DNA from: Thermoanaerobaculia bacterium
GTDB lineage: Bacteria; Acidobacteriota; Thermoanaerobaculia; Multivoradales; JAGPDF01
Direction: 5' to 3'
Length of the DNA stretch: 64,000 nucleotides
Assembly: GCA_046331385.1 (NCBI GenBank)
Contig: JAXLQW010000001.1
Location: 3,580,366-3,644,365, forward strand
Below, one piece after another: positions 1 to 24,992 of the stretch. The notes under the pieces were generated by a model that made no database searches, had not been told where the DNA came from, and was given only the letters and a program-made list of their open reading frames with translations. The translations under genes were made by a program, and so were the position numbers. Position 1 is the first letter of the stretch, and the number at the start of each line of letters is the position of its first letter.

Positions 1-829
1 CGAACTCGCCGGTCTCGAGCACCCGCAGGAGCTTGGCCTGCAGGGCGAGCGGCACGTTGCCGATCTCGTCGAGGAAGAGGGTGCCGCCGTCGGCGACCTC
101 GAAGCGTCCGGCGCGGTCGGCCTTGGCGTCGGTGAAGGCGCCGCGCACGTGACCGAAGAGCTCGCTCTCGAACGTTCCCGCCGCCAGCCCGCCGACGTTG
201 ACCACCACCAGCGGGCGCGCCGCGCGCCGCGAGGCGGCGTGTAGAGCGCGCGCCACGATGCCCTTGCCGGTACCGTTCTCGCCCGCCACCAGGACGTTGG
301 CCTCGGAGGGTCCGACGCGCTCGACCAGCTCGAGCACCGGGCGCATCGCGGGCGACTCGGCCAAGAGCCGCGGCGCCGCCTCGCCGGCGAGCGCTCGGTT
401 CTCGGCCTCGAGGCGCTGACCGGCGCGCAGCGCCCGCGCGAGCTCGGCCTGGGTGCGCAGGATGGCGATCAGGCGCTCGTTCTCCCACGGCTTCTGCACG
501 AAGTCGCGCGCCCCTTGGCGCATCGCCTCGACCGCCAGCTCGACCGAGCCCCAGGCGGTCATCACCACCACCGGCAGAGTCGAGTCGAGCTTGCGGATCT
601 CGGCGAGCAGGTCGAGGCCCTCGCGACCCGAGGTGGTGTCGCGGGCGTAGTTGAGATCGATCAGCGCCACCTCGAAGTCGCGCTGGCGCAGGGCTTCGAC
701 CGCCGCCTGCGGCGCGCCGACGGTCTCGAGCTCGAAGCCCTCGGGCTTGAGCAGCAGGCGCAGCGCCTCGAGCACGTCGCGCTGGTCGTCGGCGACCAAG
801 ACGCGCGGCCGCGGATCGGCGGGGCTCAC
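1..829 (-). CDS. NtrC-family sigma-54-dependent response regulator, REC domain plus AAA+ sigma-54 interaction domain. The N-terminus starts at a GTG around 827-829; the C-terminus runs off the left window edge, so the CDS is partial.
   Basis: Reverse translation gives [26 protein letters not shown]...ALIDLNY...MTAWGS...QKPW, which is a receiver domain with the conserved DD, D, T and K. It is followed by [15 protein letters not shown] (Walker A) and [15 protein letters not shown]...[29 protein letters not shown], the sigma-54 activator signature. The GTG start overlaps the stop of the upstream GGDEF gene. Confidence 0.85.
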
Positions 830-2340
830 GCCGGCGCTCCCGGGGCGCGCTTGGCGGCGTACATCGCGCGATCGGCGGCGCGCAGCGCCTCGTCGAGGTC
901 GGTGGCCGAGTGCGCGGTCGCCGTGCCGAGCGACAGCGAGAGCTCGGGCGGCGCGCTCACCTCGCGCAGGGTGCGCAAGTGGCGCGCGGCGCGGTCGACC
1001 AAGTCGCGGGCGACCCGCGCGTCGGCCCCCGGCAGGAGCACCGCGAACTCGTCGCCGCCGATGCGCGCCACCAGATCGGCGCTGCGGAAGCACTCGCGCA
1101 GCTCGGCCGCCGCGCGCCGCAGCAAGTCGTCGCCGGCCTCGTGGCCGCGCTCGTCGTTGACCAGCTTCAGGTCGTCGATGTCGGCGAGGATGACGCTCGT
1201 CGGGTACGGCCCGTCGCGGCGCAGGCGGCCGAGCGCCTCGTCGAAGTGGGCGCGGTTGTAGAGGTCGGTGAGGGTGTCATGGCTCGACAGGTAGCGCAGC
1301 CGCTCCTCGACCCGCTTGCTCTCGGTGCGGTCGCGACAGACCATGAGTTTGCCGCGGGTCCGTCCGGCGGCGTCGCGCAGCGGCTGGATGCGGACCTCGA
1401 GCGTGCCGCCGCCGAGGGCGCCGATCTCCACCACCCGCGTCGATTCGAATGCCGTGTCGTCGGACGTCCCGAGCTGCGGAAAGGCCTCGGCGAGCGTCAG
1501 GCCGAGCGCCGCGGCCGGCTCGCGGCCCAGCCAGCGCGCGGCGGCGGCGTTCAGGTCGACGATGCGGTTGGCGTCGTCGAGCACCAGCACGCCGTCGTCG
1601 ATCGCCTCGAGCACCCGATCGCGGGCCACGGGAACGAGGTCGAAGAGGCGGAAGCGTTCGAGCGACCAGACAGCGAGCACGCCGGTGACCGTGAAGCCGG
1701 CCGAGGTCCAATCGAGGATGTGGAACGGCGGCACGCGCAGGATGTAGAGCAGGTTGACCATCCACGGCACCGAGACGCCGCCGAGCAACAGCAGCATCTG
1801 CATGCGGTAGAAGCGCAGCGACTGCAGCGAGGCGCGCACCAGGTGGAAGCTGCCGGCGACGAACAGCGCGCAGGCGAAGACGTAGTAGAGCCAGAACCAG
1901 GGGCCGTAGGTCGAGCGCACGAGGGTGACCGGCGAAGTCTGGACCAGCTCGCGCGCCAACCAGACGCCGCGGAGCGGATCGCCGGCGGCCACCTGGAGGA
2001 CCGTCAGTGCCGGGATGACGAGCAGCGCGAGGATCGTGCCGCGGCGCAGCGCCGGCAGTCCGGCCGCGCCGCGCGCCAGGGTGAAGAAAGCCGGGGGCGC
2101 GGTCACCACGCCGAGATACTCGATGCGGGTGAAGATCTGGCGCACCGCGAGGTCGTCGCAGGCGAGCTCGATGGCGTAAGCGAGCGCCCAAACGGCGAGC
2201 GCGGTGAGCAGCACGACACCCGCGGTGCTCCCCGGCGCCGGCTGGCGCCGCCAGGCCTCGCGCGCCGAAAAGCCCGCCGCCGCCGCCGACAGCAGGAACG
2301 GCAGCTGGTAGGGAAGCTCCTCGAACGCCCAGGAAGTCAT
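826..2340 (-). CDS. Membrane-bound sensor diguanylate cyclase: multi-TM N-terminal sensor region, PAS-like linker and GGDEF domain.
   Basis: The 504-aa ORF has about 7 hydrophobic helices in its first ~230 aa. The C-terminal part reads [16 protein letters not shown]...[21 protein letters not shown]...[11 protein letters not shown], which carries the GGDEF active-site motif. Its stop overlaps the start of the downstream sigma-54 regulator. Confidence 0.85.
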
Positions 2341-2428
2341 GGGAGGCCGATTCTATGGGCCGGCGACCCCGCCGGCGCGCTCGATTCCTCGCCGGCGGGC
2401 GGCCGCGGTGGAGCGGGGAGCCGCGGTC

Positions 2429-3109
2429 TCAGACGGTTTCGTCGCCGACGATCCAGCCGTCGCGCAAGCGCACGATTCGTCGGCCGACGCGCGAGTTCTC
2501 CTCCGAGTGCGTCACCTGGATGATCGTCGTACCCTCGTCGTTCAGGCGCCGGAAGAGCCGCATGATCTCGCGCCCCTGGTCGGAGTGCAGGTTCCCGGTC
2601 GGCTCGTCGGCGAGCAGCAGCTTGGGCTTCAGCACCACCGCCCGCGCCACGCCGACCAGCTGCTGTTGGCCGCCCGAGAGCTGCGACGGGTAGAGGTCCT
2701 TCTTGCCGACGATTCCGAAGCGGTCGAGGGCGTCGGCCACCAGCGCCTGGCGCTCCGCTTTCTTCAGGTCGCGGTACGACAGCGGCACCTCGAGGTTCTC
2801 GGCCACCGTCAGGTCGTCGAGCAGGTGGTACTGCTGAAAGACGAAGCCGAGGTTGGCCTTGTGCAGCTCGTTGCGCTTCTTGAGCGAGAGCTCGTGCACG
2901 GCTTCGCCGCCGAACCGGTACTCGCCCTCCCACTCGCCGTCGAGCATGCCGAGGATGTGGAGGAGCGTCGACTTGCCGGCACCCGACGGCCCCATGATGG
3001 TGACGAAATCGCCGGGCTCGATTCCGAGATCGATCCGGCGCAGCAGCCAGATCTTCCCCGCCGGCGAGGCGATGGCCTTCTCGAGGTTCTTCAGTTCGAT
3101 CAGCGGCAC
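2429..3109 (-). CDS. ABC transporter ATP-binding protein, MacB/LolD type (a separate ATPase subunit).
   Basis: The 226-aa ORF carries GPSGAGKSTLL (Walker A), LSGGQQQLVGVARA (ABC signature), LLLADEPTGNLHS (Walker B) and the H-loop VTHS. It lies immediately downstream of an ADOP permease. Confidence 0.9.
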   Translation of the reverse strand: MPLIELKNLEKAIASPAGKIWLLRRIDLGIEPGDFVTIMGPSGAGKSTLLHILGMLDGEWEGEYRFGGEAVHELSLKKRNELHKANLGFVFQQYHLLDDLTVAENLEVPLSYRDLKKAERQALVADALDRFGIVGKKDLYPSQLSGGQQQLVGVARAVVLKPKLLLADEPTGNLHSDQGREIMRLFRRLNDEGTTIIQVTHSEENSRVGRRIVRLRDGWIVGDETV

Positions 3110-3177
3110 GCGAATCTCCTGAGCCAGGACGTCATTTTCCCTCGGGCCGGGCGCGAGAAGGCGCTCACGCAGCTTTT

Positions 3178-5601
3178 CTACTCCGCCCGCAGCGCGGCAG
3201 CCGGCTCGATGCGCGACGCGCGACGGGCGGGAATCCAGGCGATGACCAGGCCGGCGATCGCCACCGCGACGACCGCCAGGCCGACCGTCGGTGGATCGGT
3301 GGGCGAGATGCGATAGAGCTCCGGAGCGAGATAGGGGGCGAGCGGCAGGAGCGCCGCCAGGCCGACGCCGATGCCGACCGCGATCAGTCGCGCCGCTTGG
3401 CCGAGCACGCCGGCGACGAGCGCCCGCGGCGTCGCGCCGAGCGCGCCGCGCACCGCAAGCTCCCGCCGGCGCTCGCTGATCGAGGTCGCCAGGATGCCGA
3501 AGAGGCCGACGAGCGCGAGCGTGATCGCGATCCCCGCGAACCCGGCGAGCAGTCGCGCCGCGAATCGCCGCCGAGCGAGGGTGTCGGCGACCAGCGTGGC
3601 GAGCGGCCGGACGCGGAAGATCGGCAGGTCGGCGTCGAGCGCGGCGACCTCGCGACGGACCGGCTCGGAGAGCCGATCGAGCTGGCCCGGCTGGGCGGCG
3701 ACGGTAAAGGTCAGGAAGGTCGCCGGCAGCTGGTCGTGCAGTAGGTAGATCGTCGGGGGCGCCTCGGATTCGAGGTGCTGGTCGCGCACGTCGCCCACCA
3801 CGCCGACGACGTTGCCGCCGGCGCGTCCTCGCTCCCTGTAGAAGCTGAAACCGAGCTCGAGGCTATGGCCGAGCGGGTCGACGCCCGGATAGAGGCTGCG
3901 CGCCGCGCTCTCGTTCAGGAGCACGACGTTCTCGCCGCCCCAGCGGTCGCCGGGCGCGAACTCGCGACCCGAGCGAACCGGCGTGCCGCGCAGCGCGAAG
4001 TAGCCCGGCGTGACGACCCGCACCTGCGCCGACGGCTGGTCGGGAGCGTCCGGAATCTCGACGCCGTCGCGCTTGGACAGGGTGATGCCGAAGGCGAAAT
4101 CGGCGAAAGGCTGGCCGAACTCGGCCGCGACGGCGCGCACGCCGGGCAGCGCCGCCAACCGCTCGCGCAGCGCCGTGACCGCCCCGGAGACCTTCTCGGG
4201 CGTGTCGTACGAGGTTTGCGGCAGGCCGACCGAGAAGGTCAGCAGGTCGGTGGTCGCGAACCCCGGATGGACTTCGGCGAGCTGGGCGTAGCTCCGCGCC
4301 ACCACCAGCGATCCGCTGACCAGGACGAAGGCGAACGTGGTCGTGGCGACGACCAGCGCCCGGCGCGCGCGTCCGACCCCGCGCTGACCCAGGATCGTGC
4401 GCGCGCCGGCGCGCAAGGCGCCGATCGGATCGAGGCGCAAGGCGAGCAGCGCCGGGGCGAGGCCCACCGCCAGACCGCACAGGCCGGCGAGCGCCGCGGC
4501 GAAGAGCGCCGCCGGCAGGTCGAAGCTCGCTTCGCCGATCCGCGGCAAATCTCCCGCCCAAGCCGGTAGCGAACGCGCGAGCGCGGTGGCGAGCAGCCCG
4601 CCGCCGACCGCTCCGGCCGCCGCCACCAGGATCGCTTCGCCGAGCAGCTCGCGGGCGAGCGCCGACGGCGAGGCGCCGAGCGCGGCGCGCACCGCCAGGT
4701 CGTGTCCGCGCGCCACGGCGCGGGCGAGCGAGACGCTCGCGAGGTTGGCGCAGGCGGCGACGAGGGCGAGGGCGACCGCTCCGAGCAGCAGCAGGAGCGT
4801 CGGCCGCGCCGCCCTCGTCAGCTGGTCGGCGAGCGGCCGCGCGAGAGCGGATTGGCCGCCGTTGGTCGACGGGTACTGGACGGCGAGACGATCGCCGATC
4901 GTCGCCAGCTCGGCGCTCGCGGCCGCCACCGTCGTCCCCGGGGCGAGGCGGGCCACGGCATCGAGGTAGTGCGCACCGCGCTGAGAACGCAGCTCGTCGG
5001 CCGAGAAGGAGAGCGGCAGCCAGAGCTCCGAGCCGAGCGGCCAAGAGAAGCCGCGCGGCATGACTCCGACCACCGTGCGCGGCACGCCATCGACCGAGAT
5101 CCGGCGGCCGACGAGCGCCGGGTCGGCGCCGTAGCGGCGTCGCCAGAGGGCGTCGCTGAGCACCACGGTCGCCGCCTCCGGCGCGTCGTCGATCGCGCCG
5201 AGCGCCCGCCCGATCGCTGCGTCGACGCCCAAGACGCGGAAGAACTCGGCGGTGACCGCGCTCCCCGAGACCTGCTCGGCCGCGCTCCCGGTGGCGGAGA
5301 GCGCGTAGCTGCCGGCGTTGACTGCCGCGGCGGCGGTGAAGCTGCGGCTCTGCGCTCGCAGGTCGGCGAAGTTCGGCGGCGAGAGGACGGCCGGCCGGCC
5401 GTCGTGGCTCTCGTAAATCGCCACCAAGCGATGCGAATCGGGAAACGGAAGCGGTCGCAGCACCACCGCGTCGAAGGCGATCCAGACGAGGGCCGTCGCG
5501 CCGATGCCGAGCGTCAGCAGGATCGACGCGGTCAGAGCGTAGGCGGGGTCGCGGCGCAGCGAGCCGAATGCGGTCGCGAGTCGGGTCGGCAACTGGGTCA
5601 T
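3178..5601 (-). CDS. ADOP-type (FtsX/MacB-like, duplicated) ABC permease, paralog H. It is the last of the 8-gene array in transcription order.
   Basis: The true start is taken as the internal ATG giving MTQLPTRLATAFGSLRRDPAYALTASILLTLGIGATALVWIAFDAVVLRPLPFPDSHRLV. The ORF extension upstream of this ATG is Arg/Pro-rich junk. The protein is about 807 aa with an N-terminal TM helix, a large periplasmic domain and FtsX-like TM bundles, and it ends in AAALRAE. Confidence 0.85.
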   Translation of the reverse strand: MTQLPTRLATAFGSLRRDPAYALTASILLTLGIGATALVWIAFDAVVLRPLPFPDSHRLVAIYESHDGRPAVLSPPNFADLRAQSRSFTAAAAVNAGSYALSATGSAAEQVSGSAVTAEFFRVLGVDAAIGRALGAIDDAPEAATVVLSDALWRRRYGADPALVGRRISVDGVPRTVVGVMPRGFSWPLGSELWLPLSFSADELRSQRGAHYLDAVARLAPGTTVAAASAELATIGDRLAVQYPSTNGGQSALARPLADQLTRAARPTLLLLLGAVALALVAACANLASVSLARAVARGHDLAVRAALGASPSALARELLGEAILVAAAGAVGGGLLATALARSLPAWAGDLPRIGEASFDLPAALFAAALAGLCGLAVGLAPALLALRLDPIGALRAGARTILGQRGVGRARRALVVATTTFAFVLVSGSLVVARSYAQLAEVHPGFATTDLLTFSVGLPQTSYDTPEKVSGAVTALRERLAALPGVRAVAAEFGQPFADFAFGITLSKRDGVEIPDAPDQPSAQVRVVTPGYFALRGTPVRSGREFAPGDRWGGENVVLLNESAARSLYPGVDPLGHSLELGFSFYRERGRAGGNVVGVVGDVRDQHLESEAPPTIYLLHDQLPATFLTFTVAAQPGQLDRLSEPVRREVAALDADLPIFRVRPLATLVADTLARRRFAARLLAGFAGIAITLALVGLFGILATSISERRRELAVRGALGATPRALVAGVLGQAARLIAVGIGVGLAALLPLAPYLAPELYRISPTDPPTVGLAVVAVAIAGLVIAWIPARRASRIEPAAALRAE

Positions 5602-5647
5602 GGGCGTCTCCACGTCGGGATGGGGCGCTCGAGATTCGGCATCGGGG

Positions 5648-8101
5648 TCACTCCGCCCGCAGCGCGGCAGCCGGCTCGACCTCGGCCGCCCGCCAGGCGA
5701 TCGGCAGGACGGCCGCGGTCGTCGCGACCAGCAGCATCGCCGCCGCGGCGAGCCAGGCGAGCGGATCGAGCGCCGCGACGCCATAGAGAAAGCTCGCGAC
5801 CAGGTGAGCGCCCCAGCCGGCGGCGAGCGCGCCGGTCGCGAGGCCGGCCGCCGTCAGCGCCAGCGCCTCGCCGAGCACCAGACGGAGGATCCGGTGGCGC
5901 TCGGCGCCGAGCGCGGCGCGGATGCCGAACTCGCGCCTGCGCCGCCGGACGACGAACGCCACCAGCCCGGCGAGCCCGGAAGCGGTGAGCGCGAGCGCGA
6001 TCGCCGCCGCCGCGCCGACGAGCGCCGCGAAGGTGCGCTCGGGGGCGAGCGCCGCGGCGATCTGGTCGGCGAACGGGCGGGCGCGGAAGACCGGCAGCGC
6101 CGGGTCGACGGCCCGCGCCGCGGCGCGGATCGCGGCGATGGCGCGGGTCTCGCCGCCCGGCTCGACGCGGACCAGGAACTGGACGCGCGGGCGCGACTCC
6201 TGCGCCGCCGCGACGTAGAGCAGCGGCTTCGGTTGGTCGCGCAGTCCGCGCTCGCGGTAGCTCTCGACCACGCCGACGATCGTCACCTGCCAGGGATCGC
6301 GACCGGAGTCGTGGATCGTCCGGCCGACCGCCTCGCGTCCGGGGAAGAAGCGCTCGGCGAAGGCGCGGTTGACGATCGCGACCTTCGGCGCGCCCTCGCG
6401 GTCGCCGTCGCCGAAGTCGCGTCCGGCGACGAGAGGAATCCCGAGGGTGGCGAAGTAGCCCGGCGAGGCGAAGTTGAAGTTGACCGCCTCGTCGGCGCCC
6501 TCGGGCCAGGTGTAGCCCTCGGGGGTCATCGTGCGGCGCATGCCGCCGGACTCGGTCGGCACCTGGAAGCCGTAGGCCGCCCCGAGCACCCCGGGCGTCG
6601 CCGCCAGGCGCTCGCGGATCTCGGCCGCCACCCGGCGCGCCTCTTCGTCGCGGTATCCCTGACGAGCGAGGTCGACCATCGCGGTCGCGACGCCCGCGGG
6701 CCGGAAGCCGAGCGGCGTCGCGTGTAGGGCGACGAGCGTGCGACCGAAGAGGCCCGCGCCCACGAGCAGGAGCATGGCGAGCGCCGCCTGACCGGCGACC
6801 AGCAGCCGGCGCAGCCGCGGGCCGCGACCGCCCGCCGCTTCGGCGCCGGCGCCGCTCGCGCGCAGGGCGGCGAGCGCGTCGACGCGGGCGGCGGTCGCCG
6901 CCGGGCCGAGCGCGAAGACGAGGCTGGTGAGCCCGGCGAGGATCGCGGCGCCCGCCGCCACGCGCCCGCCCGAGAGCATGCCGGCCGGTTCGAGCGGGAT
7001 CGGCAGGCCGGGCGCATAGCGCGCGAAGAGGCCGACGATCGCCGACGACACGGGCACCGCCGCGAGCGCCGCGAGCGCCGCGACCAGCGCGCTCTCGGCG
7101 ACCGCCGAGCCGACCAGAGCGCGGCGCGACGCGCCGAGCGCGCCGCGGATGGCGAGCTCGCGCTGGCGCTCGAGCATGCGGGCGAGCGCCAGGCCGGCGG
7201 CGTTGGCCGCCGCGACCAGCAGGACGAGACCGCTCGTCGCGGCGAGCAGCCAGGCGACGCGCGCGACCCGCGGATCGTCCTCGACCAGGGCGCGCTCGGC
7301 GGGCACGAGGAGCGGCCAGGGGTCGCGATCCTCCCGGCTCTCGGTCTTGGCGCGCGCGGCGTCGATCGCGTCGAGCTCGGCCTGCGCCGCCGCGAGCGTC
7401 GCGCCGGGCGCCAGGCGCGCCGTGATGTCGAGGAACGACCAGCCGCGCTGCTCGAGCGGCTTCCACTGGCCCATCTCCGGGTTGACCAGGCCGATCGCGC
7501 TCATCGGCAGCCAGACCTCGGGGAAGCCGTTGAGCGTCGGGCCGCGGAAGCCGCGCGCCAGGACGCCGACGACGTCGACCGGCTGGCCGTTCAGGCGCAC
7601 CGTGGAGCCGACGATCGAGCGCTCGCCGGCGAAGCGCCGGCTGAAGCTCTCCCAGGAGAGCACGGCGACCGGCGGCGCGCCGGCGCGGTCGTCGGCCGGA
7701 CCGAGCAGCCGCCCGTAGGCCGGACGCGCTGCGAACAGGGCGAAGAAGTCGCCGGTCGCGAGGCCGGCGGCGATCCGCTCGGGCTCGCCGGCGCCGCGCG
7801 CGAAGTGCACCGACTCCCAGTCGGTCGAAGCCGCCACGTCGGTCAGCAGCCGGGCGCCGTCGCGGTAGTCGGTGAAGACCGGATACGACGAATTGCCCTG
7901 CGGTCCGGAGCGTTTCTCGTCGGTCGGGAAGATGCGCACCAGGCGGTCCGGCTCGGGCGCCGCCAGCGGGTGCACGAGCACCGCGTCGACGATGCGGTAG
8001 ATCCCGGTCGCCGCGCCGGCGCCGAGAGCGAGCAGCGCGACCGAGGTCACCAGATATCCGGGGCGACGGGAGAGCGAGCGCGCGATCTGCGACAGGTTCA
8101 T
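5648..8101 (-). CDS. ADOP-type ABC permease, paralog G.
   Basis: This is the C-terminal 817 aa of the 1421-aa artefact ORF. The start was chosen at MNLSQIARSLSRRPGYLVTSVALLALGAGAATGIYRIVDAVLVHPLAAPEPDRLV (cat at 8099-8101). The protein ends in AAALRAE. Confidence 0.85.
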   Translation of the reverse strand: MNLSQIARSLSRRPGYLVTSVALLALGAGAATGIYRIVDAVLVHPLAAPEPDRLVRIFPTDEKRSGPQGNSSYPVFTDYRDGARLLTDVAASTDWESVHFARGAGEPERIAAGLATGDFFALFAARPAYGRLLGPADDRAGAPPVAVLSWESFSRRFAGERSIVGSTVRLNGQPVDVVGVLARGFRGPTLNGFPEVWLPMSAIGLVNPEMGQWKPLEQRGWSFLDITARLAPGATLAAAQAELDAIDAARAKTESREDRDPWPLLVPAERALVEDDPRVARVAWLLAATSGLVLLVAAANAAGLALARMLERQRELAIRGALGASRRALVGSAVAESALVAALAALAAVPVSSAIVGLFARYAPGLPIPLEPAGMLSGGRVAAGAAILAGLTSLVFALGPAATAARVDALAALRASGAGAEAAGGRGPRLRRLLVAGQAALAMLLLVGAGLFGRTLVALHATPLGFRPAGVATAMVDLARQGYRDEEARRVAAEIRERLAATPGVLGAAYGFQVPTESGGMRRTMTPEGYTWPEGADEAVNFNFASPGYFATLGIPLVAGRDFGDGDREGAPKVAIVNRAFAERFFPGREAVGRTIHDSGRDPWQVTIVGVVESYRERGLRDQPKPLLYVAAAQESRPRVQFLVRVEPGGETRAIAAIRAAARAVDPALPVFRARPFADQIAAALAPERTFAALVGAAAAIALALTASGLAGLVAFVVRRRRREFGIRAALGAERHRILRLVLGEALALTAAGLATGALAAGWGAHLVASFLYGVAALDPLAWLAAAAMLLVATTAAVLPIAWRAAEVEPAAALRAE

Positions 8102-8130
8102 GGCTGCCTCCAGATGGGAGTGTCCACGCT

Positions 8131-10551
8131 TCAGTCCTCGCGCAGCGCCGACGACGGATCGAGCCGCGCGGCGCGCGCCGCCGGCAGCCAGCTCGCCACG
8201 AGCCCGGCGAGCGCCAGCACGGCGAGCGCGGCGATCGCCCAGCCCGGGCGGCGCGGATCGACGCCGTAGAGCACCGAGCCGGCGAGCGGTGCGACCAGGG
8301 CGACGAGCGCGAGACCGATCGCGGCGCCGAGGCCGAGCGGCGCGACGCCGAGCCGGACGACCTGGCGCCGGACGTCGGCCGGGGTCGCGCCGAGCGCCAT
8401 GCGCACGCCGATCTCGCGCTTGCGGCGCGAGGCGGCGTAGGAGACGACGCCGTAGAGCCCGATCGCCGCCAGCGCCAGCGCTTGGGCGGCGAAGATGGCG
8501 AAGATGGCGCCGAAGACGCGGCGGTCGGCGTAGGTCTGGTGCAGCCGGTCGAGGTAGGTCGCGACGTCGAACAGCGGCGCGTCGCGCTCGACCGCCGCGA
8601 GCTCGCGGCGGACGAGCGGCGCGAGCGCGCCGGGCGAGCCCGCGGCCGACCGGACGACGAGCGCGCCGGTGCGCCAGCCGAGGCGGGCGTACGGGACGTA
8701 GAGCTGCAGGCGCGAGCGCGGCGTCTGCTCCTGGATCTCCTCGTAGACGAGATCCGGCGCGACGCCGACGACCTCGAGCCGCGGGGCGTCGGCGGCCTGG
8801 CCGTACGCGAGACGCCGCCCGAGGGCCGGGCCGTCGGGGAAGAGGCGCGTCGCGAGGGTGCGATTGACGATCGCGACCGGCGCCTGCGGCGCGGCGAATT
8901 CGGCGGCGGTGAAGGTCCGTCCGGCGTCGAGCGCGAGGCCGAGCGCGGCGAAGAACTCCGGCGAGACGCCGACCACCGAGACCGCCGGCGCTTGCTCGGG
9001 AGCGAGGCTCGAGCCCTCGGCGAGCACGTGCTCGGCGGCGCCGCCGTCGTCGGCCGGCAGCGAGGTCACGGTGGCGGCCGCCGCCACGCCCGGCAGCGCG
9101 TTCAAGCGGTCGAGGAGCGCCCGTTGGGCGACCACCCGCGACTCGGGCTGGTCGTAGCGGTCGCCCGGCAGGTAGAAGCGCGCCGAGAGGACGGGCCGCG
9201 GATCGAAACCGGCGTCGGCGCGCGCCAGCGCGAGGAAGCTGCCGAGGATCCAGCCGGCGACGGTGAGCAGCGCGAGCGAGCCGGCGAACTGCGCCGCCAC
9301 CAGGGCGCGCTGGCCGCGCGTGCCGGAGCGGTCGCCGAGCGCGCGGGCCCCGGCGTGCAGCGCCCCCGCCGCCGGCACGTCGCCGAGGCGCAGCGCGGGC
9401 AGCAGGCCGCTCGCGATCGCCGCCAGACTCGCGACCGCGGCGATGCCCGCCGCCAGGCGCGGATCGAGATCGACCGTCAGCCAGGTGGGCAACTCCTCGT
9501 CCATCGCCCCGAGCGCGGCCACGAGCCCCGCGCGCCCGAGGGCGAAGCCGAGCGCCGTGCCGGCGAGGGCGAGCAGCGCGCTCTCGACCAGCGCGATCGC
9601 CGCCAGCCGGCCGCGCGAGGCGCCGAGAGCGCGGCGCACGGCCATCTCGTTCTCGCGCGCCACGCCGCGCGCCATCTGCAGCGCGGCGACGTTGGCGCAG
9701 GCGACGAGGAGCACCGCGATCACCGCGGCGACGAGGAGGATCAGGAAGCGATGCCCGTGCTCGTCGACCAGCGAGTCGCGCAGGCCGAGGACGCGCGCCC
9801 CGCGGCCGCGGTCGGCGGCGGGTCCGGCGGCGGCGACTTTGGCGAGCACCGCGTCGACCCGCGGCTGCAGCGCGGCGGCGGTCGTGCCCGCGGGCAGCTT
9901 GGCGATCGTCCACCAGTCGCGGCCGCGGTCGTCGAGCCGGCCGTCGGCGGGGAAGGGCACGTAGGCGCGGGTGTGCTCGGGCAGACCGAAGCCGGGCGGC
10001 AGGACGCCGACGACCGTCAGCGCGCGGTCGTTCATCTCGAGCTTGGCGCCGATCGCGCCCGGGTCGCCGGCGAAGCGGTCCTGCCAGAGGCCGTAGGAGA
10101 GGACCACCGCCTCCTCGTGGCCGAACTCGCGCTCGTCGTCCTGGCGGAAGGCGCGGCCGAGGATGGGACGCACGCCGAGCACGTCGAAGAAGTTGGTCTC
10201 GACCGACGCGCCGTCGATCCGCCGCGGCTCGTCGACGCCGGTGAGCGTCAGGTTGCGGTGCACCAGGCTGCTGACCGCGGCGAACGTTCCCGACTCGGCG
10301 AGAGCGTGAATCTCCGGCCGCGACAATCCGTCGTCGTCCGAAGCGGCGCGCTCGAACGTCGGCTCGAAGGCGACGAGGCCGGTGCCCTCGACCGCGGGCA
10401 GCGGGCGGAAGAGCAGGGAGTAGGCGAGGGTCACGACCGCGGTGGTCGCGCCGGTGCCGAGCGCCAGCGTCGCGATCGCGGCGGCGGTGATGCCGCGGCC
10501 GCGCCCGAGCTGACGCAGCGCCGGCCGGACTTCGGCGAGCCAGGAGATCAT
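8131..10551 (-). CDS. ADOP-type ABC permease, paralog F.
   Basis: This is part of the 1820-aa artefact ORF. The start was chosen at MISWLAEVRPALRQLGRGRGITAAAIATLALGTGATTAVVTLAYSLLFRPLPAVEGTGLV (cat at 10549-10551), 2 nt from the stop of the upstream paralog. The protein ends in SSALRED. Confidence 0.8.
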   Translation of the reverse strand: MISWLAEVRPALRQLGRGRGITAAAIATLALGTGATTAVVTLAYSLLFRPLPAVEGTGLVAFEPTFERAASDDDGLSRPEIHALAESGTFAAVSSLVHRNLTLTGVDEPRRIDGASVETNFFDVLGVRPILGRAFRQDDEREFGHEEAVVLSYGLWQDRFAGDPGAIGAKLEMNDRALTVVGVLPPGFGLPEHTRAYVPFPADGRLDDRGRDWWTIAKLPAGTTAAALQPRVDAVLAKVAAAGPAADRGRGARVLGLRDSLVDEHGHRFLILLVAAVIAVLLVACANVAALQMARGVARENEMAVRRALGASRGRLAAIALVESALLALAGTALGFALGRAGLVAALGAMDEELPTWLTVDLDPRLAAGIAAVASLAAIASGLLPALRLGDVPAAGALHAGARALGDRSGTRGQRALVAAQFAGSLALLTVAGWILGSFLALARADAGFDPRPVLSARFYLPGDRYDQPESRVVAQRALLDRLNALPGVAAAATVTSLPADDGGAAEHVLAEGSSLAPEQAPAVSVVGVSPEFFAALGLALDAGRTFTAAEFAAPQAPVAIVNRTLATRLFPDGPALGRRLAYGQAADAPRLEVVGVAPDLVYEEIQEQTPRSRLQLYVPYARLGWRTGALVVRSAAGSPGALAPLVRRELAAVERDAPLFDVATYLDRLHQTYADRRVFGAIFAIFAAQALALAAIGLYGVVSYAASRRKREIGVRMALGATPADVRRQVVRLGVAPLGLGAAIGLALVALVAPLAGSVLYGVDPRRPGWAIAALAVLALAGLVASWLPAARAARLDPSSALRED

Positions 10552-10553
10552 CC

Positions 10554-12947
10554 TCAGTCCTCCCGCAGGGCGCGCGCCGGGTCGAGGCGCGCGGCCGAGA
10601 CCGCCGGCACGAGGCAGGCGAGCCAGGTCACGAGCGTGAGCGTCACGACGCCCGCGGCGAGGGCGAGCGGATCGGTCGGCGCGGTCTCGAAGAGCAGCGA
10701 GGTCAGCAGGCGGCTCGCGGCGAGCGCGCCGAGGAGCCCGAGCGCCAGGCCGGCCGCGAGCAGGCGGCTGCCCGAGCCGAGCACCAGCCGGACGAGGCCG
10801 AGGCCGGTGCCGCCGAGCGCCAGGCGGACGCCGAACTCGCGGCGGCGACGCGCCACGGTGCGCGCGACGAGGGCGTAGAGCCCGATCGCCGCGAGCGCCA
10901 ACGCCAGGCCGGCGAGGCTGGCGAGCAGGGCGGCGGTGAAACGCGGCTGGCCGAGGGAGCGCGCCACCACGTCGCGCATCGAGCGCACCTCGGCGAGCGG
11001 CAGCTCGGGATCGAGTCCGGCGATCGCCCGCCGCGCCGCGGTGGCGACGCTTCCGGGCGGCAGCGAGGTGCGCGCGATCAGGGTCATGAAGTTGAGCGGT
11101 TGCTGCGCGCTCGCGAAGTAGATCGCCGGCCGCGGCGTCTCCTCGAGCGCCGAGAGGTGGACGTCGCCGACGACGCCGACGATCTCGGCCTCGACGCCTT
11201 CGTCGCCCCCCCAACGGATTCGCAAGCGGCGGCCGACCGCGTCGGCGGAGGGCCAGAGGAGGCGCGCGGTGGACCGGTTGACCAGGATCGCGAGCGGCCG
11301 GTCGGCGGCGTCGCGCGCGTCGAGGGCGCGGCCGGCGACGAGCGGCACGCCGAGGGTGGCGAGCGCGCCGGGGCTCACGATGCGGATGTCGGCGACCGGC
11401 TCCTCGCCCTTCTTCGGCGCCTCGCGATCGAGGGCGACGAAGGAGGTCGCCGAACCCATGCCGGAGAGCGGCGCCCAGCTGATCGCGCCGGCCGCCTCGA
11501 CGCCGGGCAGCGCCGCGATCCGGCGCTCGGCCTCGGCGAAGAGCGCCACCACCTTGGCTTCGTCCTGGTAAGCCGGATTGCGGCCCGGCAACGTGAGGTC
11601 CATCGCCACCAGACGCGAGGCGCGGAACCCCGGATCGACGCCGGCGAGCCGGACGAGGCTGCGGGTGAGCAGCGCGGCCGAGGAGAGCAGCACGAGCGAC
11701 AAGGCGATCTCGGCGACGACCAGCACGCGGGCGAGGCGGGCGCGCGGCGCGACCACACTGGCCGAGCGCAGGCTCTCGGCGTCGCGGCCGCTGGCGAGAA
11801 CCGGCACCAGGGCGGTGAGCGCGGCGGCGGCGAGGGCGGCGCCGACCGCGAAGGCGAGCGCCCCGGCGTCCAGGCCGACCGCGACCCACGGCGGCAGCTC
11901 GAGCGGCGCCCAGGCGACGAGCAGGGCGACGCCGCCGCGCGCCAGCACGATTCCGGCGGCGGCGCCCGCGCCGGCGATCACCAGGCTCTCGGCGAAGAAC
12001 TGGCGCGCGAGCTGCCAGCGCGAGGCGCCGAGGGCGCGGCGCACCGCGATCTCGCGCTCGCGCTCGGCGAGCCGCGCGAGCAGCAGGCCGGCGACGTTGG
12101 CGCAACCGATGAGGAGCACGACGCCGACCGCCGCCGCGAGCGCCGCGAGCGGCGAGCGCAGCTGGGCGATGAGGGGACCGGAATAGGGTTCGACCACCGC
12201 GCTCCAGCCGGCGTCGACATCGGGACGCTCGCGCTCGAGGGCGGCGGCGATGCCGACGAGCTCGGCATCGGCCGATTCGAGGGTCGCGCCGGGAGCGAGG
12301 CGGGCGAGGCCGGTCAGGTAGCGGCCGCCCGAGTCGCGGTGGCGCTCGCCGAGCGCGAGCGGAATCCAGAGGTCGGCGGCCTCCGGCGCTGGGAAAGCCT
12401 CGGGAGCGACGCCGACGATCATCGTCGGCGTGCCGTTGACCCGCAGCATCCGGCCGACGAGCCCGCCGTCCGAGCCCCAGCGGCGGAAGAGCTCGTGCGA
12501 CAGGACGCAGACGTCGGGGGCGGTCTCGAGGGCGTCGGCGGGCGCGAGGAGCCGTCCGACCGCGGCCCGAGCCCGGAAGAGAGGGAAGAAGTCGCCGGTC
12601 ACGATCCCCGAGCGCAGCCGCTCGGGCTCGCCGATGCCGGAGACGTTGGTCGGGAAGACGATGAATCCGGCGATCTGCGTCAGCGTCCTGGCGCGCTCGC
12701 GCCAGCGGATCAGGTTGCCCGGATTGATGACGTTGCGCTCGACGCCGCGCTTGGGATTCGTCTCGGAGACCCGCACCAGCCGATCCGCCTCGGCGATCGG
12801 CGCCGGGCGGACGAGGACGGCCTCGAGCACCGAGAAGATCGCGGTGTTGGCGCCGATGGCGAGCGCCAGCGTGGCGACCGCGGCGACCGCGGCGAGCGGC
12901 CGGCGGCTCCAGCCGTGGACGGCCTGGCGGAGCTCCTGGACGAACAT
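10554..12947 (-). CDS. ADOP-type ABC permease, paralog E.
   Basis: The 797-aa ORF starts MFVQELRQAVHGWSRRPLAAVAAVATLALAIGANTAIFSVLEAVLVRPAPIAEADRLV and ends in ARALRED. Confidence 0.85.
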   Translation of the reverse strand: MFVQELRQAVHGWSRRPLAAVAAVATLALAIGANTAIFSVLEAVLVRPAPIAEADRLVRVSETNPKRGVERNVINPGNLIRWRERARTLTQIAGFIVFPTNVSGIGEPERLRSGIVTGDFFPLFRARAAVGRLLAPADALETAPDVCVLSHELFRRWGSDGGLVGRMLRVNGTPTMIVGVAPEAFPAPEAADLWIPLALGERHRDSGGRYLTGLARLAPGATLESADAELVGIAAALERERPDVDAGWSAVVEPYSGPLIAQLRSPLAALAAAVGVVLLIGCANVAGLLLARLAEREREIAVRRALGASRWQLARQFFAESLVIAGAGAAAGIVLARGGVALLVAWAPLELPPWVAVGLDAGALAFAVGAALAAAALTALVPVLASGRDAESLRSASVVAPRARLARVLVVAEIALSLVLLSSAALLTRSLVRLAGVDPGFRASRLVAMDLTLPGRNPAYQDEAKVVALFAEAERRIAALPGVEAAGAISWAPLSGMGSATSFVALDREAPKKGEEPVADIRIVSPGALATLGVPLVAGRALDARDAADRPLAILVNRSTARLLWPSADAVGRRLRIRWGGDEGVEAEIVGVVGDVHLSALEETPRPAIYFASAQQPLNFMTLIARTSLPPGSVATAARRAIAGLDPELPLAEVRSMRDVVARSLGQPRFTAALLASLAGLALALAAIGLYALVARTVARRRREFGVRLALGGTGLGLVRLVLGSGSRLLAAGLALGLLGALAASRLLTSLLFETAPTDPLALAAGVVTLTLVTWLACLVPAVSAARLDPARALRED

Positions 12948-12950
12948 GGG

Positions 12951-15371
12951 TCAGCCCTCCTGGCGCAGAGCGGTGGCGGGGTCGATCCGCACCGCGCGCC
13001 GGGTCGGCGCGAGCGCGGCGGCGAGCGCGGCGACGAGCAGCACCGCCGGCACGGCGAGGAAGACCGCCGGGTCGAAGGCGCGCACGCCGTAGAAGAAGCT
13101 CGCCACCGGCCGCGCGAGCGCGGCGGCGATCCCCGCGCCGAGCGCGAGCCCCCAGGCGAGGTCGGCGAGACCGCGCCCGACCACCAGGCGGACGATGGCG
13201 CCGTCGGCCGCGCCGAGCGCGCGGCGCAGGCCGATCTCTCCCGCGCGCCGCAGCACGCCGTGGGCGGCGAGCCCGTAGACGCCGGCCGCCGCGAGCACCA
13301 GGCCGGCGAGAGCGAAGAAGCCGAAGAGCGAGGCGAGGAACTGGGCGCCGAAGCGGCCGGTCGAGACCCACTCGGCGACCGTCCGCAGGTAGTAGACCGG
13401 CATGTCGGGATCGAGCTCGGTGATCGCCTTGCGCAGCGCCGGCGCGAGCGCCGCCGCTTGACCGGGCGCGGCGCGCAGGGCGAGGAAGGCGAAGCTCGGC
13501 ACGTCCTGCGCGAGCGGCACGTAGAACGTCGGCTGGAGCTCGTTGTCGACCCGGTCCTGCTGCAGGTCGGGCGCCACGCCGACGATCGTCCACCAGGGCT
13601 CGGAGCCGTCCTGGGAGGCGAAGCGGATCCGCCGTCCGATCGGTTCGCCGGCGGGCAGCAGGGCGTCGACCAGCCGCCGGTTGACCACCGCGACGCGCCG
13701 GTCACCGGCGCCGTCGGTCGCCGCCAAGTTGCGCCCGGCGAGCAGCCGTACGCCGACGGTGTCGAAGTAGGAGGGCGTGACGCGCGCGATCTGCGCCAAG
13801 TGCCGGTCTTCGGGACGGGCGGTCTGGCCCTCGACCTCGATCCAGTCGCCGCCGACGAAGCTGCCGGGCAGACTGGAGGTGATCGTGGCGGACTCGACCC
13901 CGGGCAGCGCGCGCAGTCGCTCCTCGGCGCGGGCGTAGAAGGCGAGGCGCGCCGCGTCGTCCGGGTAGGCTTGCTCGAACAGCGCCACGCGCCCGCCGAG
14001 GACGCGGTCGCCGTCGACCCCGACCGAGGCCTCGCGCAGCAGCTGCACGCCGCGCGCCGCCAGCCCGGCCGCGGTCACCAGGCCGCAGCACAGGGCGATC
14101 TGCGCCACGACCAGCATCCGCCCGGCGCGCGCCCGGCCGGAGGAGGCGCCGCGCGCCGCCTGGCGCAGCTCGCGCTGGACGTCGAAACGCGTGCTGGCGA
14201 ACGCCGGCCCGAGCCCGGCGAGCAGAGCCGAGACGGCGACGACGCCGAGAGTGAAGGCGATCGAGCGGCCGTCGAGCGCGAAGTGGACCCAGGTCGGGAT
14301 GTCCATCGTCTCGCTCGCCCGCGCCAGGTCGAGCGTGCGCTCGCCGGCCCACTGCGCGAGCGCCAGGCCGGCGACGCTGGCGGTCGCGGCGATCACCACC
14401 GCCTCGACCATGCCGTGCAGCACGAGCCGTGCGCGCGAGGCGCCGAGCGCGGCGCGTACCGCGAGCGCCGGCCGCCGGGCGAGGCCGCGCGCCAACAGGA
14501 GATTGGCGACGTCGGCGCAGGCGATCAGCAGCACGAGCACGACCGCGGCGAACATGGTCGAGAGCTGGCTCGAGGTGCGGCGACCGACGAACTCCTGGGC
14601 GAACGGCTTGACCACCGAGCGCAGGCCCCGCGGATAGGCCGGGTCGGCGGCGCTCTGGCGGGCGAGCGCCGCGTCGAGCTCGGCGGCGGCGGCGGCGATC
14701 GACCGGCCGGGCGCGAGGTGGCCGAGCACCTCGACGGTCGCCGACTTGTCGCGCGCCAGGCCAGCCGCCTCGGCCGGGATGGTCACCCAGGCCTCCTGCT
14801 CGTACGGGAAGGTGAAGCCGGCCGGCATCACACCGACGATCGTCGCCGGCGCGCCGTTGACCCGCACGGCGCGGCCGAGCACCGCCGGGTCGGCCGCGTA
14901 GCGCCGCCGCCAGAGCCAGTCGGAGAGCACCAGCGCGGTCGGCGCGCCGGGCGCGACGTCGCCGGCGGCGAAGCCGCGGCCGAGCGCCGGCCGGACGCCG
15001 AGGATGGCGAAGACCTCGGGCGTGACGAAGGTGCCGTCGAGGCGCTCGGGTTCGTCGCGGTCGGCGAGATTGACGGTGCCCTCGTAGAAGGCGCCGAAGT
15101 CCTCGAAGCTCGCGAGCGTCTTCTTCCAGTCGACGAAGTCGACGTACGGCACCTCGAGGCTCGAGCGGTCGCGCGCCGGATCGGAGAGTTCGACGTGCAG
15201 CAGGCGGCCGGCGTCGCGATACGGCAGCGGCCGGAGCAGGAAGGCGTCGATCGCCCCGAACATGAAGAGCGTCAGGCCGATGCCGACGGTCAGGATCGCC
15301 GCCGCGAGGATGGTGAAGCTGCGCCCCCGGCGCAGGGCGCGCAACGCTTGCAGGACTTCGTCGAGGATCAT
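12951..15371 (-). CDS. ADOP-type ABC permease, paralog D.
   Basis: The 806-aa ORF starts MILDEVLQALRALRRGRSFTILAAAILTVGIGLTLFMFGAIDAFLLRPLPYRDAGRLL and ends in ATALRQEG. Confidence 0.85.
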   Translation of the reverse strand: MILDEVLQALRALRRGRSFTILAAAILTVGIGLTLFMFGAIDAFLLRPLPYRDAGRLLHVELSDPARDRSSLEVPYVDFVDWKKTLASFEDFGAFYEGTVNLADRDEPERLDGTFVTPEVFAILGVRPALGRGFAAGDVAPGAPTALVLSDWLWRRRYAADPAVLGRAVRVNGAPATIVGVMPAGFTFPYEQEAWVTIPAEAAGLARDKSATVEVLGHLAPGRSIAAAAAELDAALARQSAADPAYPRGLRSVVKPFAQEFVGRRTSSQLSTMFAAVVLVLLIACADVANLLLARGLARRPALAVRAALGASRARLVLHGMVEAVVIAATASVAGLALAQWAGERTLDLARASETMDIPTWVHFALDGRSIAFTLGVVAVSALLAGLGPAFASTRFDVQRELRQAARGASSGRARAGRMLVVAQIALCCGLVTAAGLAARGVQLLREASVGVDGDRVLGGRVALFEQAYPDDAARLAFYARAEERLRALPGVESATITSSLPGSFVGGDWIEVEGQTARPEDRHLAQIARVTPSYFDTVGVRLLAGRNLAATDGAGDRRVAVVNRRLVDALLPAGEPIGRRIRFASQDGSEPWWTIVGVAPDLQQDRVDNELQPTFYVPLAQDVPSFAFLALRAAPGQAAALAPALRKAITELDPDMPVYYLRTVAEWVSTGRFGAQFLASLFGFFALAGLVLAAAGVYGLAAHGVLRRAGEIGLRRALGAADGAIVRLVVGRGLADLAWGLALGAGIAAALARPVASFFYGVRAFDPAVFLAVPAVLLVAALAAALAPTRRAVRIDPATALRQEG

Positions 15372-15394
15372 CGGTCTCTCCTGGCGCGTCGAAT

Positions 15395-17887: not shown

Positions 17888-17915
17888 CGCGGCTCTCCTC
17901 TCGGAATCGTCGGGC

Positions 17916-20354: not shown

Positions 20355-20369
20355 GACGATTCCTCCGGG

Positions 20370-22818: not shown

Positions 22819-23528
<710 letters not shown>

Positions 23529-23532
<4 letters not shown>

Positions 23533-24776
23533 TCCAGTCGGACGCGGTCGAACGCGTCCCAGGTCGACATGTCGGAGAGGATCACGCGGTCCCCTTCAGC
23601 GAGGCCGCTTTGGACTTCGATGAGGTGCACCGAGCCGCGCCCGAGCTTCACCTGCACGCGGGCCGCGTCGTCGCCGTCGGCGCCGACCCGGAACAGGGTC
23701 ACGGTCGACTCGGGCTGACCGAACGCCGGGCGGCCGACGAAGAGCACGTCCGAGAGATGCTCGAGCTCGATCGTGCCGTCGACCGACAGGTCGGGGCGCG
23801 CGCCCTTGGGCAGGGTCCCGAGGAGCTGGACGTCGACGGTGACCGTGCCGTTCTGCACCGCCGGATCGATGCGCAGCACCTTGCCCTCGACCACGCCGTT
23901 GCGGGTGTCGATCTTCGCCGGCTGGCCGAGGAGCACGTCGCGCGCCTGGGTCTCGGCGATTTTCAACTCCGCCTTGAGCGGTTCGGGGCGGGCGACGCGC
24001 GCCAGCGTCGTGCCCGGCGTCACCCGCTGGCCGACCTCGACCGGCAGCTGCTGCAGGACGCCGGCGAGCCCGGCGCGCACCTTGAGCGCCTCGACTTCGC
24101 CGGCGCGCAGGCGGTGGAGCTCGCGCAACTGATCGACCCGCGCCTGCTGCGCCGCGAGCTGGGCCTGGATCGAGGCCTCGCCGCCGGTCAGGCGCTGGGT
24201 CTCGAGGTCGGTGCGGGTTTTCAGCTCCTCGGCCCGCACGCGCGAGATCTTGAGCTGCAGGGCGGAGACCAGCCCCTCCTTGGCGAGCTGCTCGTTGGCC
24301 TCGGCCTCGAGCCGCGCCTGTTGGTAGTCGGCGTCGACCGACGCGGCCTGGGCTTTCTGGTCGAGCTTGGTGCTCTCGAGCCGGACGCGAAGGGCGGCGA
24401 GGTCGGCTTCGGCGGCGCGCTCCTGGAACTCGGCGTCGCGCGCCGAGACCTCGAGCTCCGGGTTGGTCAGCTCGAGGATCACGCTGTCGGGTTCCACCGC
24501 GGCTCCCGGCTGCAGCAGGAGGCGCTCGATCCGGCCTTCGGAGGCGGCCGAGATCCAGCGAATGTCGATCGGCACCAGCGTCCCGTTGCCGCGCACCTCG
24601 CGCACGAAGTCGCCGCGCCGGACGGTGTCGATCCACAGCGTGCCCTTCTCGACCTGCGGTGCCGCCGGCTTGAGGCGGGCGAGGCCGACGGTCACGAGCG
24701 CGATCGCCAGCGTCGCGCCGCCTCCGACGAGAAGTCGCCGGCGCGTGCGGTTCGGGGGCGTGCGAGGAATGTCCAT
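23529..24776 (-). CDS. HlyD/MacA-family periplasmic adaptor (membrane-fusion protein) with a long coiled-coil hairpin.
   Basis: The protein has an N-terminal TM anchor (RRRLLVGGGATLAIALVTVGLA), then a Q/A/E/L-rich coiled coil (RVRLESTKLDQKAQAASVDADYQQARLEAEANEQL...), then beta-barrel/MP-proximal regions. The ORF track starts at a TTG at 24792-24794. The ATG at 24774-24776 (MDIPRTPP) is chosen here because a sigma-54 promoter element overlaps the TTG. Confidence 0.8.
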
Positions 24777-24790
24777 CGCATCTCTCCATG

Positions 24791-24805
24791 GCAACGTCGG
24801 TGCCA
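24791..24805 (-). promoter_or_regulatory. Candidate sigma-54 (RpoN) -24/-12 promoter, TGGCAC-N5-TTGC on the minus strand, directly upstream of the adaptor/ATPase/ADOP operon.
   Basis: The reverse complement of 24786-24807 reads cTGGCACcgacgTTGCcatgg. This is a perfect match to the GG-N10-GC core consensus (TGGCAC N5 TTGC). The predicted start site is around 24779, just 5' of the ATG at 24776. Confidence 0.45.
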
Positions 24806-24992
24806 GGTCCGGAGTTTCAACCTAACTTACGATCCGGCCTCGGTTTGGGTTGCGCGGCGGCGGGCCGGCGCGGGGGCCGCCGTGTGCGCTGCCGGGACGA
24901 GACTGTGCCGGAAGCGGACACCGCCGCGCTCCCGGCGGGCCCCTGCCGAAAGTGGGGATCGACCGTCGGCCGAGAATGAATAGAATGCGCCG

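Follow-up and report, generated by a model that had tools for sequence, protein, structure and literature searches.

A lineage-specific diguanylate cyclase gene at the regulatory tail of a putatively sigma-54-controlled ADOP transporter operon of the Acidobacteriota

The DNA analysed here is a 64,000-nucleotide (nt) window from the genome of a Thermoanaerobaculia bacterium (phylum Acidobacteriota; assembly GCA_046331385.1, contig JAXLQW010000001.1, positions 3,580,366 to 3,644,365 of the forward strand), and the genes in question are those of a membrane-bound diguanylate cyclase and of a sigma-54 activator, which overlap at its left edge. Positions 1..2340 are the regulatory tail of a minus-strand operon of about 25 kb that encodes a membrane-fusion protein, an ATP-binding cassette (ABC) ATPase, eight permeases of the ADOP family and a second ABC ATPase (ATPase2). 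The features of this tail and of the gene that precedes it, with the evidence in brackets, are as follows.

1..829, minus strand: 5′ part of an NtrC-family response regulator / sigma-54 activator gene, 276 codons, cut by the window start (profile matches)
826..829, minus strand: GTGA overlap of the cyclase TGA stop (828..826) and the activator GTG start (829..827) (sequence)
837..840, minus strand: GGAG, Shine-Dalgarno-like, 7 nt before the activator GTG, within the coding end of the cyclase gene (direct reading)
826..2340, minus strand: diguanylate cyclase gene, 504 amino acids (aa) (domain matches, SadC alignment)
1630..2295, 1312..1611 and 844..1284, minus strand: HisKA_7TM, PAS and GGDEF submodules of the cyclase
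1045..1059, minus strand: GGDEF active-site motif, aa 428-432 (RIGGDEF, aa 426-432) (SadC alignment and direct reading)
1075..1086, minus strand: RSAD, an RxxD I-site, aa 419-422 (direct reading)
2341..2428, minus strand: spacer between ATPase2 and the cyclase gene, 88 nt
2429..3109, minus strand: ATPase2, MacB/LolD/DarD-like, 226 aa (profile matches)

The cyclase carries a HisKA_7TM domain (aa 16-237, 163 bits), a PAS_4 domain (aa 244-343) and a GGDEF domain (PF00990, aa 353-499) that scores 127.4 bits, above the gathering cut-off of 23.8. The GGDEF domain can be aligned to SadC (4wxo), an active cyclase of known structure, and retains the substrate- and metal-binding motifs DxLT..NR, DIDxxK..ND, GHxxGD and ADxAMYxAK; the active-site RIGGDEF is intact, as the first-pass annotation of this DNA had noted, and the RxxD I-site lies 5 residues before GGDEF. 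The cyclase thus looks catalytically competent and product-inhibited via its I-site. On the plus strand, tca at 826-828 and cac at 827-829 read as GTGA on the coding strand, which places the cyclase stop and the activator GTG start in a 4-nt overlap. This overlap, also part of that annotation, stands; it is identical in a relative whose cyclase is 94% identical (L003) and is called in a second relative (L004) as well. Together with the Shine-Dalgarno-like GGAG, it indicates that translation of the cyclase is coupled to the activator start codon.

The activator fragment (276 codons, 829 down to 2) comprises a receiver domain (Response_reg, aa 10-124) and the first 121 residues of the sigma-54 interaction domain (Sigma54_activat, PF00158, aa 156-276, 147.6 bits on the cut fragment). 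Exact matches to the window cyclase were found on 2-kb contigs that end before the window edge, and L003 was used instead, so that what lies beyond the edge, namely the C-terminal part of the activator and the next gene, is deduced from L003 and L004. The L003 contig (15 kb) holds an open reading frame (ORF) of 407 aa cut at the contig start, three complete ADOP genes, an ATPase, the cyclase, the activator, a kinase and a hydrolase. Its 455-aa activator is identical to the window fragment at 271 of 276 positions (98%), raises the Sigma54_activat score to 215 bits and adds AAA_lid_14 and HTH_8 domains (HTH_8, 56.6 bits). A 456-aa PAS-HisKA-HATPase kinase gene lies 15 nt downstream of the activator gene in L003, with the same 15-nt gap in L004, which makes the activator one half of an ordinary two-component pair. 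At its N-terminus, by direct reading of the sequence, the L003 kinase has two hydrophobic, predicted membrane helices with a connecting loop some 8 residues long. Elsewhere, the window encodes a histidine-kinase paralogue (54217..55392, minus strand) that shares 28% identity with the L003 kinase across some 360 residues.

To place the activator among its relatives, one genome per species was scanned, which gave 435 relatives, the best 80 of which (65-73% identical) were used as orthologues. They span Thermoanaerobaculia, Vicinamibacteria, Blastocatellia, Terriglobia and Bryobacterales, together with a few bins labelled as other phyla. The receiver residues D14, D15, D58, T91 and K113 are all present in the activator and invariant in 80/80 orthologues. 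The AAA+ domain has a Walker A motif GENGTGKG, a Walker B motif LFLDE and, in place of the GAFTGA loop, GAFTDA (fragment aa 230-235), the D of which is invariant in all 80. The recognition helix LGLSRSALYRR is invariant or nearly so across the family, consistent with a conserved binding site. Assignment of the activator as ZraR (383 of 760 bits required), AtoC (382/714), PrsR (377/503), NtrC (371/559) or NtrX (363/600) was rejected, all scores lying below the NCBIfam cut-offs, and LuxO also remained below its cut-off. Since no curated equivalog cut-off is reached, the activator belongs to an uncharacterised orthologue group marked by GAFTDA.

The neighbourhoods of the 80 orthologues, searched by tblastn over 10 kb on each side, share a recurring order: a membrane-fusion protein, an ATPase, one to several ADOP permeases, often a second ATPase, the activator and the kinase. 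The kinase gene lies directly downstream of the activator gene in 75/80 loci. In 52 of the 72 loci with enough sequence, the activator gene is preceded on its own strand by an ABC ATPase gene (24 loci) or an ADOP permease gene (28) that ends no more than 500 nt away; in the 24 ATPase loci, the gene directly before the activator is an orthologue of ATPase2 (62-75% identical). With the cyclase set aside, the layout of the window is exactly this order: the GGDEF, PAS and 7TM parts of the cyclase had no match in any of the 80 loci. Conversely, a search among 5.8 billion proteins returned a single cluster of close cyclase relatives (94% identical), the next best being 43% identical, and none of five more distant homologues, which occur in unrelated contexts, has an activator neighbour. 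The HisKA_7TM-PAS-GGDEF architecture itself is common to dozens of proteins of Chloroflexota, Actinomycetota and others, none of which, among those examined, shares the operon context. From its presence at 0/80 activator loci and that of an activator beside 0/5 homologues, it follows that the cyclase is a lineage-specific insertion between ATPase2 and the activator gene. Recent horizontal transfer was considered and dropped for want of a compositional signal: the G+C content of the cyclase gene and its third-codon-position value (GC3) are the same as those of neighbouring genes, so it is not a recent foreign arrival.

Two further observations concern the related loci. A second, paralogous enhancer-binding protein gene is divergent from the membrane-fusion gene in L018 (2989..4104, minus strand) and L025 (2523..3872, minus strand). 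In L010, L012, L013, L014, L015, L016, L017, L020, L024, L040 and L053, many of them Bryobacterales bins, ABC and ADOP genes are missing from the 1.2 to 10 kb of sequence covered upstream of the activator; the kinase is directly downstream in all except L015.

Upstream of the tail, the operon and its putative control region consist of the following.

24883..24920, minus strand: putative enhancer dyads, TGTCCGCTTCCGGCAC at 24920..24905 and GTCCCGGCAGCGCACA at 24898..24883 (family consensus score)
24791..24805, minus strand: predicted sigma-54 -24/-12 promoter, TGGCACcgacgTTGC (exact consensus match)
23596..24776, minus strand: membrane-fusion (periplasmic adaptor) protein, 392 aa, first gene of the operon (HlyD_3 and HlyD_D23 matches)
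22819..23532, minus strand: first ABC ATPase, 237 aa (profile matches)
3178..22808, minus strand: eight tandem ADOP-family duplicated FtsX/MacB permease genes, namely
20370..22808, 17916..20354, 15395..17887 and 12951..15371, minus strand: first four ADOP genes
10554..12947, 8131..10551, 5648..8101 and 3178..5601, minus strand: last four ADOP genes

The membrane-fusion gene, which is the conserved head of related clusters, scores 86.9 bits against TIGR01730, slightly below the cut-off. The last ADOP ORF (3178..5784) scores 716 bits against the ADOP model TIGR03434, above its cut-off of 622.3, and the other seven paralogues align with the last ADOP gene over their full length at 33-35% identity. 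Eight ADOP paralogues separated by gaps of 3-46 nt form an unusually long array for one transcription unit. An RpoN-box search, the scope of which was the 64-kb window and not the rest of the genome, found no sigma-54 gene there.

The first-pass annotation proposed that the operon encodes its own sensing and regulatory module, which possibly feeds back on a sigma-54 promoter at 24791..24805. Both proposals gain ground: the module is there, with the activator in the window and the kinase downstream in L003 and L004, and comparison backs feedback at the level of the operon. The promoter sequence TGGCACcgacgTTGC (24805..24791), 13-14 nt before the membrane-fusion ATG, is the sole exact sigma-54 consensus match in the window, where 0.05 would be expected by chance. 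At one mismatch, the pattern does no better than chance (2 found, 2.35 expected); one such site is TGGGACCGGACTTGC at 29393..29407 (minus strand), close to where a long ORF of that strand starts. A strict search for TGGCA[CT]-N5-TTGC across all related loci gave only 13 scattered matches. Restricting the scoring to the regions upstream of the membrane-fusion gene, in the 24 clusters where its start is visible, uncovered a degenerate but conserved -24/-12 element: 16 of the 24 regions score at least 9/11, at 13-120 nt upstream, a level reached by 1.4% of random windows, 1.8% of shuffles and 1/24 regions on the antisense strand.

These regions also share a 16-nt motif, GTCCCACAAACGGACA, an imperfect dyad (GTCC-N7-GGAC) that is matched at 12/16 or better in 20/24 of them and in about 2% of random windows. 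The dyad lies upstream of the -24/-12 element and is often paired, with the sites 21-22 nt apart. Across 1.26 Mb of loci there are 19 strong dyad matches: 11 are found 107-221 nt upstream of the start of a membrane-fusion gene, and most of the remaining ones precede an ATPase or ADOP gene of these clusters, with a -24/-12 site between dyad and gene. In the window, the two dyads start 22 nt apart, about 100 nt upstream of the promoter, and match the consensus at 12/16 (24920..24905) and 11/16 (24898..24883); the former is the only window match that reaches at least 12/16. Dyads and promoter lie in a 216-nt control region that the operon has in common with a divergent ORF at 24993..26627 (plus strand), which starts MSQQPEAVGRYRIVQEIGRGAMGAVYKA and resembles a Ser/Thr protein kinase. 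In some relatives, a dyad and -24/-12 module also stands inside the cluster (L009 6771, L026 9148, L036 9162, L054 6416, L067 1578), immediately upstream of either the second ATPase gene or the final ADOP gene, from where it would drive a short sub-operon with the activator and kinase genes in it; no such internal module was found in the window.

GAFTDA is known as a natural variant in DVU2106, a functional sigma-54 regulator of D. vulgaris (PMC4641369). Its invariance in the present family, alongside the conserved -24/-12 promoters, adds comparative support for this variant working with sigma-54.

Altogether, these findings favour, with some reserve, a model in which the kinase-activator pair drives the sigma-54 operon and the cyclase is an added output of it, not a conserved supplier of ligand. 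The kinase would phosphorylate D58 of the activator, and the phosphorylated protein would bind the paired GTCC-N7-GGAC dyads at 24883..24920, as co-conservation of activator and dyads suggests. Its AAA+ ATPase, from what is known of the family, would then remodel sigma-54 RNA polymerase at the -24/-12 promoter (24791..24805). The transporter genes would thereby be switched on, and read-through into the activator and kinase genes would amount to positive autoregulation, with ribosomes that finish the inserted cyclase re-initiating on the activator gene. The physiological role that we infer for the cyclase in this scheme is that operon induction would raise the capacity for synthesis of cyclic di-GMP (c-di-GMP), gated by the 7TM-PAS sensor and limited by the I-site. 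Made, in this scheme, together with the transporter, the cyclase is more likely to be an output or target of the activator than its input. The wider proposition appears fairly probable: a phylum-wide and apparently undescribed regulon, composed of ADOP permeases, ABC ATPases, a membrane-fusion protein, the GAFTDA activator, the kinase and the conserved dyad enhancer, would truly exist and control the large ADOP arrays of Acidobacteriota.

Several observations weigh against this model. Walker A of the activator, and of 42/80 orthologues, continues after its lysine with G instead of the usual E; this GTGKG departs from most such proteins and may bear on the predicted ATPase activity. Two parts of the scheme, the kinase and the C-terminal portion of the activator, are read from L003 and L004 and not from the window. 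The window dyads are degenerate, with GCAC in place of GGAC, and the bare core GTCC-N7-GSAC is not enriched in the window (8 found, 9.4 expected), so that their credibility comes from position, pairing and the comparative pattern; another regulator could bind the dyads and act at the promoter. The predicted sigma-54 start, 12 nt after the C of the -12 element, lies only about 3 nt before the membrane-fusion ATG, and a GGAG at 24786..24783 would fall upstream of the transcript, which is unusual; this would imply a near-leaderless mRNA or a different start, and L052 has the same promoter-ATG spacing. The activator-kinase pair is not always linked to a transporter cluster, as 11/72 loci have no ABC or ADOP gene in the 10 kb upstream. 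Finally, the 88-nt spacer before the cyclase, with its conserved TAGAAT, could hold a promoter of the cyclase's own.

In its known relatives, the system is closest to NtrC-type regulators such as NtrC/NtrB, ZraR/ZraS and AtoC/AtoS (4l4u, 1ny5, 1ojl), which provide the best solved-structure matches of the activator (E = 1e-95 to 1e-87). They share with it the receiver, AAA+ and Fis-type helix-turn-helix (HTH) layout, the phospho-acceptor residues and both Walker motifs, and with the window system an adjacent PAS-HisKA-HATPase kinase, a -24/-12 promoter and dyads about 100 nt upstream. The activator differs from them by its invariant GAFTDA instead of GAFTGA, by a Walker A motif that is often GKG in its family and by reaching no equivalog cut-off, and its target would be an ADOP/MacB-type transporter array rather than nitrogen, zinc or acetoacetate genes.

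A second likeness is to the Bce-type detoxification modules of Firmicutes, in which an FtsX/MacB-type ABC transporter is combined with a two-component system whose kinase is almost devoid of an extracellular loop. The window and L003 likewise show a MacB/FtsX-type permease and ATPase beside a dedicated two-component system, with a kinase loop of about 8 residues. The regulator probably induces the transporter here as well, and by analogy with Bce-type modules sensing may proceed through the transporter itself. However, the regulator is a sigma-54 NtrC-type activator and not an OmpR-type one, as many as eight duplicated ADOP permeases form an array, and a membrane-fusion protein is present.

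The alternative that fares best, which we nevertheless hold to be unlikely, treats the cyclase as an independent gene unrelated to the transporter, with its own promoter in the 88-nt spacer, possibly leaderless or with a short leader from TAGAAT; read-through would then provide only basal expression of the activator and the kinase. The first-pass annotation held that the cyclase and activator genes follow ATPase2 with no room for a separate promoter. ATPase2 is indeed upstream (2429..3109), but room there is: the spacer (2341..2428) is the largest intergenic gap of the whole operon. The 22 nt next to the ATG, with a -10-like TAGAAT (2355..2350) at a distance of 9 nt from it, are conserved in L003, whereas the remainder of the spacer has changed and carries a 32-nt indel. 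The cyclase ATG has no Shine-Dalgarno element before it, and, as described above, the homologues of the cyclase sit in unrelated contexts elsewhere. Against this, a two-hexamer sigma-70 scan of 600..3300 found no -35/-10 promoter, and the best sigma-54-like score in the spacer was 7/11, so no such site was found there. A terminator scan of 600..3300 gave two terminator-like matches, both on the wrong strand and none after ATPase2; the RNA fold of the spacer is no stabler than shuffles (z = -0.46), for which reason a terminator or attenuator was dropped. The conservation of the 22 nt comes from two lineages only, which are about 94-98% identical in protein, and the cyclase gene has the orientation of the operon around it, the other genes of which are tightly packed. 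The cyclase is probably co-transcribed with the operon; a separate promoter in the spacer may nevertheless exist.

A less probable alternative, and the one originally proposed on the precedent of FleQ and VpsR, is that the cyclase and the activator form a c-di-GMP pair: the activator would bind c-di-GMP made by its neighbour, as FleQ and VfmH do, and its ATPase or DNA output would be modulated in a second-messenger feedback. The coupled expression predicted from the 4-nt overlap and the Shine-Dalgarno-like element, kept in the relative, and the active look of the cyclase speak for such a pair. If it were true, a cyclase feeding a c-di-GMP-sensing sigma-54 activator would be a new FleQ-like circuit in an uncultured phylum, but the evidence does not support it. 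The contacts named as critical in FleQ by PMC8335546, which cites Matsuyama 2016, are R144, R185, N186, E330 and R334. After the FleQ sequence had been checked against PDB chains, alignment placed P153, R194, A195, H339 and A343 of the activator at these positions, the first three read in the window and H339 and A343 in L003. In the 80 orthologues, the same positions hold P (73/80), R/Q/K, T/A, H (74/80) and mostly Q (56/80). The search for FleQ-type residues that had been called for was therefore negative, with 1/5 contacts kept, and the R194 in question is a generic ATP-site arginine; in FleQ itself, the ATP site likewise involves R144, R185 and R334 (PMC10723142). FleQ-type sensing of c-di-GMP is accordingly not supported at the level of residues. 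The AAA+ sigma-54 domains of FleQ (Pseudomonas aeruginosa; 5exx, 8p53) and the activator are homologous (E = 1e-70) and share the arginine that follows Walker A, but FleQ has a degenerate receiver whereas that of the activator is orthodox and served by an adjacent cognate kinase, and no FleN-type partner was seen.

A further point in favour of the pair is VfmH of Dickeya dadantii. It has the same receiver-AAA+-HTH layout, with GAFTDA at almost the same position, and binds c-di-GMP via R195, R279 and R344 (PMC10714721). Mapped onto the activator through FleQ, without a direct VfmH alignment, the first two arginines correspond to R194 and R277 and the third, R344 of the NxxxR motif, to A343 (mostly Q in orthologues). 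The two retained residues are arginines common to enhancer-binding proteins generally. VpsR of Vibrio cholerae, homologous over its receiver-AAA+-HTH domains (7v2b, E = 2e-44), fails as a precedent: it has no GAFTGA, its Walker B departs from the consensus and its partner is sigma-70 (PMC6158489), which leaves no sigma-54 model. The activator, by contrast, retains DE in Walker B as well as a loop like GAFTGA, and it is accompanied by conserved -24/-12 promoters. A pairing that occurs in a single lineage, at none of the 80 activator loci and beside none of the five cyclase homologues, cannot be the mechanism of the activator family.

Binding sites for c-di-GMP are diverse and difficult to exclude by sequence. 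The GAFTDA family could bind the nucleotide in a non-FleQ, partly VfmH-like way, through the generic arginines and further residues, giving a loop closed by the cyclase; we give this very little credence, and the phylum-wide ADOP regulon is much more probable. Were it so, the kinase and activator would induce the operon, the cyclase would be made with the transporter, and c-di-GMP would damp or reshape the activator ATPase; in one lineage, a sigma-54 transporter regulon would thus carry self-contained feedback by a second messenger.

Least probable of all is that the cyclase is a signalling partner of the membrane machinery and not of the activator, its 7TM-PAS part sensing the same envelope cue or contacting the kinase or ADOP proteins while c-di-GMP acts on other effectors, for example of matrix or motility, and couples transporter induction with a lifestyle switch: HisKA_7TM is normally a sensor of histidine kinases, the short-looped, two-helix kinase probably relies on another membrane protein for sensing, and the cyclase is co-located with the operon and translationally coupled, by prediction, to the activator gene, but the proposal is purely inferential and the arrangement occurs in one lineage only.

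The gene arrangement at this locus is thus real, operon-level feedback by the kinase-activator pair is supported, and the reading of cyclase and activator as a c-di-GMP pair is not. Few gene families of soil Acidobacteriota are as expanded and as little understood as the ADOP permeases, and literature searches on their regulation returned nothing relevant. What is new here is that, in a single lineage, a cyclase gene has been inserted into an ADOP transporter cluster of a widespread type, which is putatively under sigma-54 control and apparently not described before. In the window and the 80 related loci, many ADOP arrays are seen to close with a sigma-54 two-component system of their own, the promoter and enhancer signature of which turns these clusters into a testable regulon with a searchable DNA motif. 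The insertion, for its part, shows how one gene may wire a second-messenger output into an existing operon while keeping translational coupling to the next gene.

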